Shown here: positions 1,151 to 60,069 of the stretch, piece by piece
How the letters are laid out: the number at the start of each line of letters is the position of its first letter
Position numbering within the stretch: the first letter of the stretch is position 1
Origin: Octopus vulgaris
Lineage: Eukaryota
DNA: 64,000 bases
NCBI GenBank assembly: GCA_951406725.2
Contig: OX597838.1
Span: forward strand, 4,030,001 to 4,094,000
Direction: 5' to 3'
Translations under genes and position numbers: made by a program
The notes under the pieces: model-generated
Databases searched by the model: none
What the model was told of the DNA's origin: nothing
What the model saw: the letters and a program-made list of their open reading frames with translations, nothing else

Positions 1151-1596
1151 TATATATAATATAACTATATATATATAGTTATATTATTTACATACTTCCA
1201 AGTTTAAGTTGGGGCATTCGTCGTGTATGAATAGAAAACTGAAGAAACTGGAGCCAGGAAACATGTGATTGCGAAGGAAATGTCTTATATAAGTCTGTTT
1301 TTAAAAAGTCGAAATTGAAGTCGCTCTTCTTCTTCTCTTTCACGTCGCTTCTTTCTCTCTTCTCTTTTCTCCTTTTCCTTCTACTTCTCCCGCATTTTCC
1401 TTTTGGTCTTCTTCTTCTTCTTCTTCTTCTTCTTCTTCTTCTTCTTCTTCTTCTTCTTCTTCTTCTTCTTCTTCTTCTTCTTCTATTCCTGCTTCTTTAT
1501 TCATTCTTCTACCTCACCTCCTTCATCTTCCATTTTCCATCATCATCATCTTTTTCTTCTTTTCCTCATCGGGTTTTCTGTCTCTTCTTCTTCTTC

Positions 1597-1664
<68 letters not shown>

Positions 1665-1921
1665 GCTTTCTTCTGCCTTTTCTTCTTCTTCCCTTATTCT
1701 TCACATAAAGATAAACTCCAACCTGATTGGATTCTCCAGCTTCTTTCCAGAAACACTTCACCTGTGTTTGTGTGTGCGCGCGCGCGTGAGTGAGTTAGTG
1801 AGTTCGTGTGTGTGGTCTGCACATGTATATATTTGTATGTGTGTGAGTGTTCGTTTGTTTTAACGTTCTTATTCATCTTTCTCATTGGAAATCTCCCCCA
1901 CTTCTCTCTCCATCTCTCTCT

Positions 1922-1985
<64 letters not shown>

Positions 1986-2346
1986 CACACACATACACAC
2001 ACACATGCATACACATACACACGCAAACACACCCACAAACACACACACATTCTCACAAACACACATACACAGATTTCGTCAATGTCTCCCTCGCTCATTC
2101 AATTACTCCCTTTCCTTCTCTTCCCCCCCTCTCTTTCTCTCCCTTTCTCTCTCTCTCTCTCTCTCTCCCCACTTCCTTTGTCTATCACCTCCCGCCGACC
2201 CTCTTACCTTATTCCATCTCAATTATCCGTGGTCCCTCTGTGTAATCTTGCATCTAAGCCCTACCATTTCCAGTTCCACGTTGTGTAAGATTGGCTATTT
2301 ATGAGGGAGCAGTGTATGCTTGTGCACACGCAACATAGAGGGGCCG

Positions 2347-2393
<47 letters not shown>

Positions 2394-2785
2394 TGTGTCT
2401 GTTCGTGTGAGTGTGTGTGTGTGTGTGTGTGGGCATGCGCGTATGAACGAAGGTTTGAACACACACTTTTATATATTTCATTACCGGATCGCAGTCTCTC
2501 CCCACTCCCCTCTTTCACTTTGCCCTTTCTCTCCCCCTCTTTCCCTCTCTCTCTCTATATATATATATGTATGTGTGTGTATGTGTGTTGTGTGTGCGTG
2601 TTTGAGTGCGTGCATGCGCGCCCTCGTGTTTGTATTTGCATGTACCTGCATAAATACAAGTACTTGTCTATATGTATATGACCCTTAATTGTATGCATGC
2701 ATACATAATACATACATACATATATATACATATATAAATATATATATATATATATATACACACACCCACATATGTATACATATGC

Positions 2786-2842
<57 letters not shown>

Positions 2843-2857
2843 CGTGTGTGTTGTGTG

Positions 2858-2888
<31 letters not shown>

Positions 2889-2928
2889 ATGTACACCACA
2901 CTTTGGTTCACCACCCATCCACCCACTG

Positions 2929-2974
<46 letters not shown>

Positions 2975-3689
2975 CCTCCACTCATCTCCAATCACTCAAT
3001 GAGTGAGGTAGGGAATACCGGAGTGACAGATTAGTCAGTAACTCATTTTCCCGACCACCACCACCACCACCACCACCTCCACCATCACTAACACCAACCC
3101 CCAGCACCACCGCCGCCGCCACCGACATCACCGACTAATACCACTTTCACCACCAACACCACCGCTGTTACCATCGTCACCATTATCACGATCGCAACCA
3201 CTACCATCACCATCCTAATTACCATCTCCATAGGCACCACCACCACCACCACCACCGTCACGGCCACCACCTTACCATCAGCAGCGACAGCAGTAGCAGC
3301 AGCAGCAGCACTACGCCGCCATCACCATCACCACCATTATTATAACCACCACCAACACTATCACCATCACAACCAGCACCACCACCACCATCACAACGAT
3401 CATCACTTTAATTATCATCCTCCCCGCCATAATGTCCACCGCCACTACCACCATTACTACCATGAACCAAAGTCGAAGTCTGTTAGAAACTGCAGCCAAA
3501 TGTCCCTCAAATCATATTCTACCGCTGTCCAAAAACTAGATTCACGCGTCAGGGAATGTACGCAGAAATACGGATATACTCGGAATGGCCATGACTGGAA
3601 AGCCTTTGAGCATAAGTTTGCTGGAACAGGGCTGAGTTGGGACTAAACACCACAGCCATCTAGAAATAACTAACTTTCTATAATGCACC

Positions 3690-3728
<39 letters not shown>

Positions 3729-3739
3729 AATACTGAAAC

Positions 3740-3817
<78 letters not shown>

Positions 3818-3870
3818 ATGGATGGATGGACAGATAGGTAGATAAACTCACACACACACATATGCATATA

Positions 3871-5343: not shown

Positions 5344-6340
5344 AAGAGAGAGAGAGAGAGATGTCTATTTATTTGGACGTGTCTGGTGGTGGAGTCGGGA
5401 CTGATGAGATGTTTTTACGAAGTTTCAATATGGAACGGGGGACACTCGTAAAACGTGTGTATACTTGTATATGCATGTCCGCGTGAACGTGTGTGTTTAT
5501 ATGTGTGTACGTATGTGCGTATGCATTTCTATATGTTTCCGTCCCTGAGCAAGTGCGCATGCGTATTTGTATATGTAAGCGTGCGTGCGTGTGTGAGAGA
5601 GAGTGAGAGAGCGTGTATGAATTTTATTGTTTAGCTTAAGGTGATTCCCCGATCGAGCAGATATAGGATGAAAGATGTTCCAGCCGTGACCATTCTGTCT
5701 TAAAAAGCACATAGCCGCATTATTCACTTGAGGGAGATTTGGCTGCTATATTCGGCAGATACAGCAACCAAGTCGATGACTTCCTCGTTGGCTCTTGTAT
5801 ACGTTTATAAAAGTGTGTGTGTGTGTGTGTGTGTGTGCATCTGTGAGTTTGCTTGTGTATTAGTGTATCTGAATGTAACATATATAAGTGCGCATGCCTG
5901 TAAAAGGTGAATGGAATTTGTATGTGTGCATGCGCGGTGTGTGTGTGTGTGTGTGTGTTTATATGCCTTTGTATAGTATTGCTGTTGATGTTGTTGAACC
6001 TCAAATGACAATGTGTCCTGTTTGAGTAGTCCTGCGATCAGAGTCGTTCCAACCGTGACCACCCACGTCAGGGCTTCATTGACTACGTCCCACTTATTGT
6101 AAACAAGTAGAGTGCGACTTGAAGGTATTTGGTTGCTACTTCTAGCAAATACAGCAACCACATACAGGCTTCTTCTGCGTTGCTGTTTAACAGACAGGCA
6201 GACATACAGACAGACTCGCACAATTTATAGAAAATCTTAAGTAAGAGAGAAAACGTAAATGGACATAGCAGCATTATACTCGAGTTCAGCGGTAGGATAA
6301 CCTGGATAACTGGAAGAGAGTGGAAAACAGTGGTCCCTTG

Positions 6341-6450: not shown

Positions 6451-6754
6451 CTTATACACTTCATTGCCTGCAGCTAGAAAAATCACTTTTATGTGCAGCG
6501 AATATCTCCAATGGTAATTGTTAATTCTGTTAGGGCGTTAGTGGTTTGTGGTTATGCAGTTTATCATTTAAAAGTGATATTTCAATTTAAAAGATTACAG
6601 TTTAAAATTTGTGGAGGAGATGTACTTGCATAGCCAGTGACCTGATCTGAGATCGTGTGTTGAAACAAAAACAATTGCTGTGTGGAAGGTGTTTAGAAGC
6701 CATTTAAGAAACACACAAAAACCGTTAGATTCACTTCAACATTTAAATTTAATT

Positions 6755-6802
6755 TGTCAAAATATTTTCGTCGCTTTTGAGACCGCTACCTGTTCACCGA
6801 CA
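6755..6802 (-). ncRNA. Minimal type I hammerhead-like motif with G3-C8 core (in Penelope-like repeat 6618-6815)
   Basis: UGUCG-GUGAACA-G-GUAGC-GGUCUCAAAA-GCGAC-GAAAAUAUUU-UGACA: stem I, variant core, stem II, GAAA, palindromic stem III. Confidence 0.55.
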
Positions 6803-7044
6803 AAATTCACTGACAAATTTATTAGTTTACTTGTATGGGCCCCCCAAAATCTTATATGGACCCACAGGCCCAGTTGAGAATCACCGATATCTAGATCAAT
6901 CCAGATCTATGGTCAAAACATTACAGCCATGTCTGACCATCCTACCGTATTTTCCGAGAATTTATCTGTCGACTCCATTTATCCAATGTGTTCTACTTGG
7001 ACTAAAAGCTGTGTTTTGAGAGGAATTTGATTGCTATTTCTACA

Positions 7045-7274
7045 TGGGCATACGGTTTAGTGGTTAAGAGCGCGGGCAACCTGAATAATAATTATAACAA
7101 CATCGAAAAATACCTTAGGAATGAGAACCCAGGTTCAAAATTTCTCCAAGACACCTGATGAAGGCTGGAGGGTATATCAGCCGAAACGTTGTGTTAGCAA
7201 CAAACAAAATGAGGACAAATATCCGTCGAATGTAAATAATGTACATAATTCCTCATCTCTTAAATATAGAACTG
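7045..7274 (+). mobile_element. tRNA-headed SINE-like element carrying a hammerhead ribozyme; 10-bp TSD
   Basis: TSD TATTTCTACA at 7035-7044 and 7275-7284. 5' A-box-like ggtttagtggttaagagc (B-box deleted in this copy), (AAT)n linker, HHR body. Second copy at 59757-60041 (-). Confidence 0.8.
7150..7195 (+). ncRNA. Minimal type I hammerhead ribozyme (canonical core)
   Basis: GACAC-CUGAUGA-A-GGCUG-GAGGGUAUAU-CAGCC-GAAAC-GUU-GUGUU. Stem III is only the ACGU palindrome, as in dimer-acting Penelope HHRs. Confidence 0.8.
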
Positions 7275-8112: not shown

Positions 8113-8281
8113 AATATTAGGGAATGAATCCAAAATTACAGGGAAAAATCAGATTTAGGGTTAAATCCAATTTTATAGTAAAATATTATATAATATAATT
8201 CGAGACAAAACCACTATTTTAAAACCAAACAAGGAAAGACTTAATCAATACATAAAATTTTAATATAAATTAAATAAACCG

Positions 8282-8324
8282 CCACTACAAATGTTTCATG
8301 TCTGCTCCGACAATCTTCAGGTGG
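8282..8324 (-). ncRNA. Minimal type I hammerhead ribozyme (left arm)
   Basis: Exact reverse complement of 8750-8792. Confidence 0.7.
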
Positions 8325-8749
8325 ATTTTCGATCTAAGAATAGCAATATTTTAAAATATAATTTAAAATAATTTAAAATAATAAAACAATAAAATTATCA
8401 ATGAAAGAAATAAAAATATAATCTATATATAATCTAAAATAATCTAATATAAACCCTATAAACAATTGAATATAAAAACCTATTATAAAATTTCTCATAT
8501 TTAAAAATGTACAAAAACCAAGTTTTTGGTTTTTGTTTTTTGCTTGTTGTTTTTTGGTTTTTGTACATTTTTAAATATGAGAAATTTTATAATAGGTTTT
8601 TATATTCAATTGTTTATAGGGTTTATTTTAGATTATATATAGATTATATTTTTATTTTTTTACATTCTTTCATTGATAATTTTATTGTTTTATTATTTTA
8701 AATTATTTTAAATTATATTTTAAAATATTGCTATTCTTAGATCGAAAAT

Positions 8750-8792
8750 CCACCTGAAGATTGTCGGAGCAGACATGAAACATTTGTAGTGG
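8750..8792 (+). ncRNA. Minimal type I hammerhead ribozyme (right arm)
   Basis: CCAC-CUGAAGA-U-UGUC-GGAGCA-GACA-U-GAAAC-AUUU-GUA-GUGG. Predicted cleavage after GUA (8788). Confidence 0.7.
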
Positions 8793-8898
8793 CGGTTTAT
8801 TTAATTTATATTAACATTTTATGTATTGATTAAGTCTTTCCTTGTTTGGTTTTAAAATAGTGGTTTTGTCTCGAATTATATTATATATATATTTAAAC

Positions 8899-8950
<52 letters not shown>

Positions 8951-9052
8951 GTAATAGAAAGTAAGTTCTTGGTACAGTATTATATATTTGAAAAAATGAG
9001 TAGAGATGGCTTTTTTGTGGGATAATTTTTATTTTAATAATTATTTTTAGTG

Positions 9053-9392
9053 AGATGTACTTGCATAGCCAGTGACCTGATCTGAGATCGTGTGTTGAAA
9101 CAAAAGCAATTGCTGTGTGGAAGGTGTTTATAAGCCATTTAAAAAACACACAAAAACCGTTAGATCCACTTCAACATTTAAATTTAATTTGTCAAAATAT
9201 TTTCGTCGCTTTGAGACCGTGACCTGTTCACTGATGCAGCACAAAATTTTGTCAGTGAACAGGTCACGGTCTCAAAGCGATGAAAATATTTTGAGAAATT
9301 AAATTTGAATGTTGAAGTGAATCTAACGGTTTTCGTGTGTGTTTTTTAAATGGCTTCTAAACACCTTCCACGCTGCAATTGTTTATGTTTAA
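9053..9392. mobile_element. Inverted pair of Penelope-like repeats with two G3-C8 hammerhead-like motifs (9190-9234 -, 9250-9296 +)
   Basis: Arm ~9097-9234 is inverted relative to 9251-9392. Same family as 6618-6815. Both arms contain (UG)UCA-GUGAACA-G-GUCAC...GCGAY-GAAAAUAUUU-UGA. Confidence 0.7.
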
Positions 9393-11992: not shown

Positions 11993-12028
11993 CCTTCTGT
12001 CGAAGAGCGTAGGCTCGAAACACCAAAG
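11993..12028 (+). ncRNA. Degenerate hammerhead-like motif, CUGUCGA core (family copy 1)
   Basis: CCUU-CUGUCGA-A-GAGC-GUAG-GCUC-GAAAC-ACC-AAAG. Cleavage triplet is mutated in this copy. Confidence 0.45.
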
Positions 12029-12393
12029 ACTTTTACATTCTTCCTGAGCGTCAAACTAATACACCTACTCGTTGTTCCATCACCTATCTTCGTCTTCTGT
12101 TTTCTGTAAATTTGAAATACACATACACACACAGATATATGTGTGTATATGTGTCAATAAAGTATTTTTTTGTACTCATTCCTTAATAAAAGAGTTAATT
12201 GTAAATTTTTTTTGTATTAAATAATTGCGATAGAATTTCAAAGTAAAATTGTTTTTGTCTTCCAACCACCGTTGGGGGCATACATTTTTCTGGAAAGTTA
12301 TAGAGGGGCCTGGGAGAAAATAGGTTAGAAAACACGGATCTAGGATAAGATAATTTATCGGCGATGGTCATGCTTGTGAATGAGTTGACAGCC

Positions 12394-54865: not shown

Positions 54866-55164
54866 TTTACTGTGTCTGGGGAGAGTCATTTTCTTTTTGT
54901 GCCTTATTATGTAACACACTCACCGGTAAAATTTCCACTTTTTTCTTATTTTTAAAATAAAAAATTTTTAAATAAAAAGAAAAAAGTAGAAATTTCCCCT
55001 TTTATCTTATTTTTAAAATAAAAATAAGAAAAAAGTGGAAATTTTACCGGTGAGTGTGTTACATAATAAGGCACAAAAAGAAAATGGCTCTCCCCAGACA
55101 ATAAAATATGCTTCAACACACGAACTCATATAAAGAATCTTGCAAACCAAATCCAAAATCGAAA
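54866..55164. mobile_element. Fold-back insertion (~80-bp arms, 54873-55100) with direct-repeat TSD
   Basis: TATTCCAGCTGT at 54854-54865 and 55165-55176. Body shares gag.tcgtgtgttgaa.ca and aacacac...accg.ta with the Penelope-like repeat at 6618/9053. Confidence 0.7.
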
Positions 55165-59756: not shown

Positions 59757-60069
59757 TACAGTTCTATATTTAAAAGATGAAGAATTATTTACATTTGACA
59801 GATATTTGTCCTCATCTTGTTTGTTGTTAACACAATGTTTCGGCTGATATACCCTCCAGCCTTCATCAGGTGTCTTGGGGAAATTTCGAACCTGGGTTCT
59901 CATTCCTAAGGTATTTTTCAATGCTGTAGTTGTTGATATTATTACTATTATTATTATTATTATTATTCAGGTCACTGCCTCAAATTGAACTCGGAATCTT
60001 GGGATTAGTAGGCCGTGCTCTTAACCACTACGCCATATGCCATAATTCCTCATCTCTTAAACACAGAAC
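59757..60069 (-). mobile_element. tRNA-headed, hammerhead-bearing SINE-like element (HHR 59829-59874) with an inverted copy of its 3' end at the 5' side
   Basis: Minus strand: A-box TGGCGTAGTGG, B-box-like GAGTTCAATT, (AAT)n, then GACAC-CUGAUGA-A-GGCUG..CAGCC-GAAAC-AUU-GUGUU. 60042-60069 is an inverted copy of 59761-59788. Confidence 0.8.

Follow-up and report, generated by a model that had tools for sequence, protein, structure and literature searches.

A natural G3-C8 hammerhead-like motif in the pseudo-LTRs of a Penelope-like retrotransposon of Octopus vulgaris

Motif copies in the window and in the genome

Is a hammerhead-like motif, in which the core pair C3-G8 has been exchanged for G3-C8, a ribozyme kept by selection or the remains of one already dead? 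The question is raised by a window of 64 kb of Octopus vulgaris DNA (the whole stretch analysed), for which an initial annotation had described three copies with the core GUGAACA, changed with respect to CUGANGA at positions 3 and 8 in each of them. Sequence reading of the window found the GTGAACA core at 9255-9261 (+), 9231-9225 (-) and 6797-6791 (-), which confirmed all three positions, and the same core was read throughout the family. The sites are real, yet they do not amount to three independent copies: the motifs at 9190-9234 and 9250-9296 belong to the two inverted arms of a single insertion, which leaves two insertions in the window. Their features are as follows (positions in the window):

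9234..9384 (+): tailless arm C of an inverted pseudo-LTR insertion; covers consensus positions 1-149, 94% to the family consensus
9050..9234 (-): arm B of the same insertion as arm C, 5'-cut at the junction, with a tail of ~55 nt; 93% to the consensus, positions 19-210
6616..6807 (-): copy A, a separate single-arm insertion with tail; 94% to the consensus, positions 12-202
9248..9254 (+): stem I 5' strand of arm C, from the sequence; pair probability 0.7-1.0 in the parent pseudo-LTR
9255..9261 (+): core G3-U4-G5-A6-A7-C8-A9 of arm C, from the sequence
9262..9281 (+): inserted G, stem II and loop II of arm C, with two decay changes, from the sequence
9282..9291 (+): G12-A13-A14, palindromic 6-nt stem III and U17 of arm C, from the sequence
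after 9291 (+): predicted cut site of arm C, placed as in known hammerheads
9292..9298 (+): stem I 3' strand of arm C, with one mismatch, from the sequence
9190..9234 (-): hammerhead motif in arm B, with its core at 9231-9225 and cleavage predicted between 9195 and 9194
6753..6804 (-): hammerhead motif in copy A, with its core at 6797-6791, from the sequence
9052..9138 (-): first 29 codons of the ORF of a Penelope-like element (PLE), ATG at 9138, ending with the tail, by translation

Arms B and C together form one inverted insertion at about 9050-9384. All window copies are damaged: in the arm at 9250, stem II contains an A-C mismatch and a G-U, and stem I a G-G; the arm at 9190 has its stem I reduced to 3 bp by the inversion junction, and the copy at 6755 has an A-A mismatch in stem II. 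They do not fold as hammerheads (z -0.61, +0.85 and -0.39), whereas an undamaged arm does (z -2.42). Core and stems are intact in 16 of 54 arms, which bears out the earlier caution that single copies may be dead.

At the genome level, a 23-nt pattern gave 3,319 matches, of which 2,895 carry G3-C8 (reversed control, 0), 182 another base at position 3 and 242 G3 with another base at position 8 (controls, 0). A young subfamily with a different loop II provides a further 1,987 exact 30-nt matches with G3-C8, and a downstream pattern retrieved 8,189 arms in the genome. Mean divergence from the family consensus is 5.4% (158 arms). On the contigs covering the unit, no other letter reached 5% at positions 3 and 8 in any of four runs under four other organism labels. 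The consensus proposed from the window copies is that of the family genome-wide, down to the extra G following A9, AAUAUU as stem III and U17. A literal CUGANGA core is absent, the family core reading GUGAACA; U4, G5, A6, A9, G12, A13, A14, A15.1-U16.1, H17 and G10.1-C11.1 are all found in both consensus and parent, and the Watson-Crick 3-8 pair is present as G3-C8. The motif is not due to chance and is family-wide.

Rfam returned no hammerhead match in the motif, and none for canonical or U3-A8 examples; as the canonical hammerheads at 7155 and 8754 escape it too, its silence is uninformative on the motif. Concerning a second large G3-C8 family, none was seen among the first 100 of 850 loose-pattern matches (control, 851), which is a weak test.

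Other motifs are present in the window. Canonical C3-G8 minimal hammerheads of two other families lie at 7149-7200 (+), near 59869 (-), at 8750-8795 (+) and at 8280-8325 (-), the 8320/8754 pair being arranged head to head, like an inverted PLE insertion. A hammerhead-like motif at 11993-12030 (+) has U, not A, at position 6. A long near-perfect inverted repeat at 54874-55099, below the threshold for an Rfam miRNA model, is probably another inverted mobile-element insertion.

Parent retrotransposon and sister lineage

The unit is the pseudo-LTR (pLTR) of an EN+ Penelope-like retrotransposon. The parent was found stepwise, from the ORF start encoded in the tail, by a protein search for its continuation and then a genome search. 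At the parent locus L340, pLTRs at 1722-1925 and 5983-6189, both G3-C8, surround an ORF with RT and GIY-YIG, and direct pseudo-LTRs with the hammerhead flank the ORF at L339 as well. GIY-YIG was matched in Pfam (E 1.8e-5, L344) and the catalytic YVDD motif of the RT was read in the sequence of the parent ORF, in which Pfam RVT_1 gave no match. The ATG lies 56 nt downstream of the predicted cut site in the parent, the frame running on into the PLE ORF. Six full-length copies were found, four young ones ~98% alike and two older (84% and 91%), of which one (L341/L311) reads G3-G8. An unbroken full ORF occurs in none of the six, the longest open frame having 1,025 aa.

The pLTR unit is ~205 nt long; its copies share a 5' end lying 20 nt before G3, and their inversion junctions vary among insertions. 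Of 30 inverted loci, 26 carry a tail of ~55 nt on a single arm (17 left, 9 right) and none on both arms; the remaining four have no tail by the pattern used. TATA is the commonest four-letter sequence after the tail (38/113). One-arm tails and inverted 5'-truncated copies are published PLE marks (PMC8557442, PMC11167929, in their available text). The parent ORF has a cysteine linker and a CCHH motif, read by eye, and, judged from these two features, the linker points to the Neptune/Nematis type. With the EN+ PLEs of this type, as far as described in the available text of PMC8557442, the element shares a C-terminal GIY-YIG, a CX2-5CxxC cysteine linker and CCHH, as well as the tail, inverted 5'-truncated copies and (TA)n targets; it differs from them by the lack of a Pfam RVT_1 match and by its non-canonical hammerhead core.

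Named proteins of two Octopus species are 97% and 92% identical to the encoded peptide. Public Octopus gene models (P0001 and P0002) start with the ORF of this PLE, P0001 joining this ORF to methyltransferase domains, probably as a gene-model fusion. At six loci (L083, L090, L091, L104, L105 and L107), one inverted copy is carried inside a larger repeat, with at least 700 bp of shared flank at 96-98% identity. Non-LTR retrozymes occur as head-to-tail tandem monomers of 150-400 nt; this identity was rejected for the present copies, which are dispersed, single or inverted, with no such tandem monomers. A 3.4-kb tandem on C2 was likewise rejected as parent, being a local duplication with an unrelated PLE inserted. 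An unrelated young PLE, present as an inverted duplicate at L242:6414-8705 (+) and 1550-3841 (-), has RVT_1, GIY-YIG and a 764-aa frame; no hammerhead was found near it by a simple pattern.

As for the ancestral state of the 3-8 pair, the other PLE-type hammerheads of the window have C3-G8, hence G3-C8 is the derived state. Canonical-core patterns gave 44 matches with the family's stem I (control, 4) and 15 with its stem II (control, 0). Most of these matches come from an older sister family, which has the inserted G, stem II and spacing in common with the G3-C8 family. Its DNA downstream of the ribozyme is homologous in four of nine copies tested (z 5.8-9.8) and more weakly so in the other five. 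A young sister, located by protein search and not by motif, possesses an intact 1,312-aa ORF with 54% identity over RT-EN and is also C3-G8 (L345:1442-5377 and L346; G000:C15:42992000-43000000 and C17:6330300-6338300). Its pattern has 3,270 matches, with A9C in nearly all of the 100 matches listed; the fixation of A9C in a very successful young sister indicates that the PLE clade tolerates core change. A natural functional A9U is on record (PMC10085705, available text).

A midpoint-rooted tree of 16 sequences, computed without positions 3, 8 and 9, groups the G3-C8 copies in a single clade whose branch measures ~0.6 substitutions/site. Compared with the young sister, U4-G5-A6 (3/3), G12-A15.1 (4/4), U16.1 and U17 are kept, stem II and the inserted G are identical at 9 of 11 positions, loop II at 1 of 6 and the downstream non-coding DNA at 32 of 52. 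One stem II pair is G-C in one of the families and A-U in the other. The family departs from the canonical core by two changes only, which are complementary to each other; by simple counting, this would be expected by chance about once in 165. Since the homologous sister hammerhead has C3-G8, the 3/8 swap is a true covariation, and the initial proposal of a naturally covarying pair is supported, the sister lineage having C3-G8 where the family has G3-C8 and the context being a PLE pLTR. The swap is one evolutionary event. A count of 29/29 paired cells at 3-8, from an alignment of the G3-C8 and C3-G8 sets, is circular, as the bases at these positions had served to select both sets.

Fold, decay and 5' ends of the copies

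The parent copy folds with stems I and II as the minimum-energy structure (z -3.41; 0 of 200 shuffles as stable), and the pairs of both stems have probabilities of 0.7-1.0 in the full parent pLTR. In the mid-age consensus, the stem I pair probability is ~0.45. Paired stems I and II, on which the family claim had been made to depend, are thus present in consensus and parent alike. The stem III palindrome AAUAUU is present, but its duplex is very weak (-0.2 kcal/mol vs. -3.5 for AACGUU); in the computed dimer minimum, stem II is swapped and stem III is not formed.

G3-C8 and stem II are conserved in each of four subfamilies (divergence 8.9%, 5.2%, 1.8% and 1.7%), whereas loop II has changed at five sites. 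None of 31 subfamily-type changes falls in the 28 positions of core, stem II and stem III (P ~0.007, from a hand-picked list in which the loop II changes may not be independent). A common stem I variant, U-A to U-G, occurs in 51 of 182 arms. After insertion, the copies decay neutrally. Three arms with C3-G8 were considered as ancestral relics and rejected, as they share no diagnostic changes and are more decayed (9.6% vs. 5.5%); two independent hits by drift would give ~0.8 C3-G8 double hits per 3,319 arms, an expectation based on hand counts of 15 and ~39 of the first 100 variant rows (positions 3 and 8). Neither G3-G8 (35 arms) nor C3-C8 (12 arms) was retained as an intermediate subfamily, no diagnostics being shared.

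Of 30 arms anchored downstream, none begins at the predicted cut site and 13 begin 20 nt upstream of the core, and 5' ends of genomic copies defined by the cut site were rejected. In an Anolis PLE, cleavage needed protein and uncleaved RNA was the main insertion template; moreover, cleavage was dispensable for insertion in vitro (PMC11167929, available text). Uncleaved RNA as main template fits the octopus arms, given that none starts at the cut site. A branch-point, a pyrimidine tract and an AG lie at L340:1690-1722 and 5950-5983, ending at the common 5' end of the short copies, and an acceptor-like signal is present at the 5' end of the unit in 12 parent-type copies. A splice donor was looked for in the PLE 5' leader and not identified. 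The common 5' end is possibly a splice acceptor or a start site; in Drosophila Penelope, the intron ends at stem I (PMC4209133, available text).

Known hammerheads, rival explanations and significance

The motif resembles the minimal hammerheads of metazoan PLEs (Cervera and De la Pena 2014, PMC4209133, available text) in being type-I and located in pLTRs, in the extra base between 9 and 10.1, the G10.1-C11.1 pair and the palindromic short stem III, and in the dispersed and inverted copies and, possibly, an intron end near stem I. It differs from them, as described there, by the core pair G3-C8 and by stems II and I of 5 bp and 7-8 bp, vs. 7-8 and 4-5 bp. Minimal PLE hammerheads show low activity as dimers and none as monomers (PMC4209133). 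They have been suggested to be passengers. Any Watson-Crick 3-8 pair is reportedly tolerated in some contexts, as Przybilski and Hammann are said to have found in 2007.

Natural compensatory U3-A8 hammerheads are published (PMC3088659), also in Schistosoma Cercyon PLEs with about 1,300 hits (PMC4209133), and the octopus motif is like them, according to the available text of both papers, in its compensatory 3-8 change and in its occurrence within a PLE family. This makes 3-8 covariation in itself less surprising. U3-A8, however, keeps pyrimidine-3/purine-8 by way of transitions, whereas the route to G3-C8 takes two transversions with a mismatch in between. In the PAc Poseidon hammerhead of an Anolis PLE, cleavage is partly rescued by the engineered double change C3G/G8C (PMC11167929), and engineered G3-C8 also appears in PMC3884650; as far as the available text of these papers goes, the swap is the same, the octopus G3-C8 being natural, fixed in thousands of copies and of predicted activity. 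No report of a natural G3-C8 hammerhead was found in the accessible literature, though one may exist, and the available portions of PMC6765202, PMC6155905, PMC11014351 and bioRxiv 10.64898/2026.07.22.740005 contain none. Naiad PLEs thrive without canonical hammerheads (PMC8557442, available text).

In viral contigs, full folds were obtained for 108 of 124 C3-G8 among the matches listed, for 10 of 92 U3-A8 (reached by 0 of 100 shuffles) and for 2 of 42 G3-C8 (reached by 25 of 100 shuffles); mismatched 3-8 controls gave 0/69 and 0/28 (0/97 together). Phage-type type-I G3-C8 motifs with full stems at L363:61-90 (-) and L382:61-95 (-), from IMG/VR contigs, are candidates only, their count not being above that of shuffles.

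Three other accounts of the octopus motif have to be weighed. It might be a chance likeness in the sub-terminal repeats of a foldback DNA transposon (MITE), as many copies are long inverted repeats and Rfam sees no hammerhead here. The arms are nevertheless unequal, the junctions differ per insertion, the tail is on one arm and the unit stands in direct orientation on both sides of the RT-endonuclease ORF; the one-arm tails and the pLTR-ORF-pLTR structure refute a MITE, to which we leave a vanishingly small chance. A ribozyme already dead in the ancestor, with two coincidental core changes carried along by a successful retrotransposon, would be compatible with a swap that is one event only, with the neutral decay of young copies and with the odd cores found elsewhere (A9C; A6U at 11997), which add a look-elsewhere effect. 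Such a death is distinctly improbable in our estimate: the core differs at just two positions and these complement each other, the stems and the remaining core persisted along a branch on which the flanks lost ~40% identity, and subfamily changes avoid the core.

The fold and the 3-8 pair could also be kept for a role other than cutting (PLE protein binding, splicing at the neighbouring acceptor-like signal, or translation start 56 nt downstream), cleavage being negligible. That insertions come from uncleaved RNA, that A9C is fixed in the sister and that an acceptor-like signal with branch-point and AG stops 20 nt short of G3 would all suit such a role; in addition, slow cleavage in vitro is described for PLE hammerheads (PMC4209133), whose role PMC8557442 regards as unclear. 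We nonetheless hold this to be unlikely, the 3-8 pair being part of the catalytic arrangement and G12, A13, A14, A15.1-U16.1 and H17 all being kept.

The explanation that we favour, and regard as probable, is a minimal type-I PLE hammerhead with a selected G3-C8 pair, the parent RNA being predicted to cut weakly after U17. Several findings count against it: the swap arose in a single event that required a mismatched intermediate, no arm of 30 starts at the cut site, A9C is fixed in the successful young sister, the AAUAUU duplex is very weak, one older full-length copy reads G3-G8, Naiad PLEs do well without canonical hammerheads, and insertion in vitro did not require cleavage. According to this preferred explanation, the active core would form in the parent RNA with the G3-C8 pair, and weak self-cleavage after U17 would take place, probably as a dimer or with protein help. 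Dimers would form via the palindromic stem III, cleavage may trim tandem or read-through transcripts, and selection for the active fold likely kept the 3-8 swap. Short genomic copies, including those of the window, would likely derive from uncleaved RNA and then decay neutrally, and head-to-head arms may result from two reverse-transcription starts, one with tail and one without, joined by microhomology.

To judge from its sequence, the natural G3-C8 motif fixed in a recently active octopus retrotransposon likely cleaves. A bolder proposal, made here tentatively and one that may well not hold, is that selection in such an element has fixed a catalytically active G3-C8 hammerhead, which would be the first one known from nature. 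Thousands of hammerhead-like motifs per genome escape standard descriptors and, if the proposal is true, there would be a hidden set of core-variant ribozymes missed by CUGANGA searches. Natural 3-8 covariation is extended from U-A to a purine-pyrimidine flip, and the natural G3-C8, the C3-G8/A9 sister and the C3-G8/C9 sister provide a ready comparison set. A compensatory swap in the catalytic fold is direct comparative evidence for selection on the PLE hammerhead fold; an active G3-C8 form, if real, would together with the A9C sister mean that selection favours cleavage by PLE hammerheads, but at a slow rate, and that the catalytic core is tuned by retroelements.
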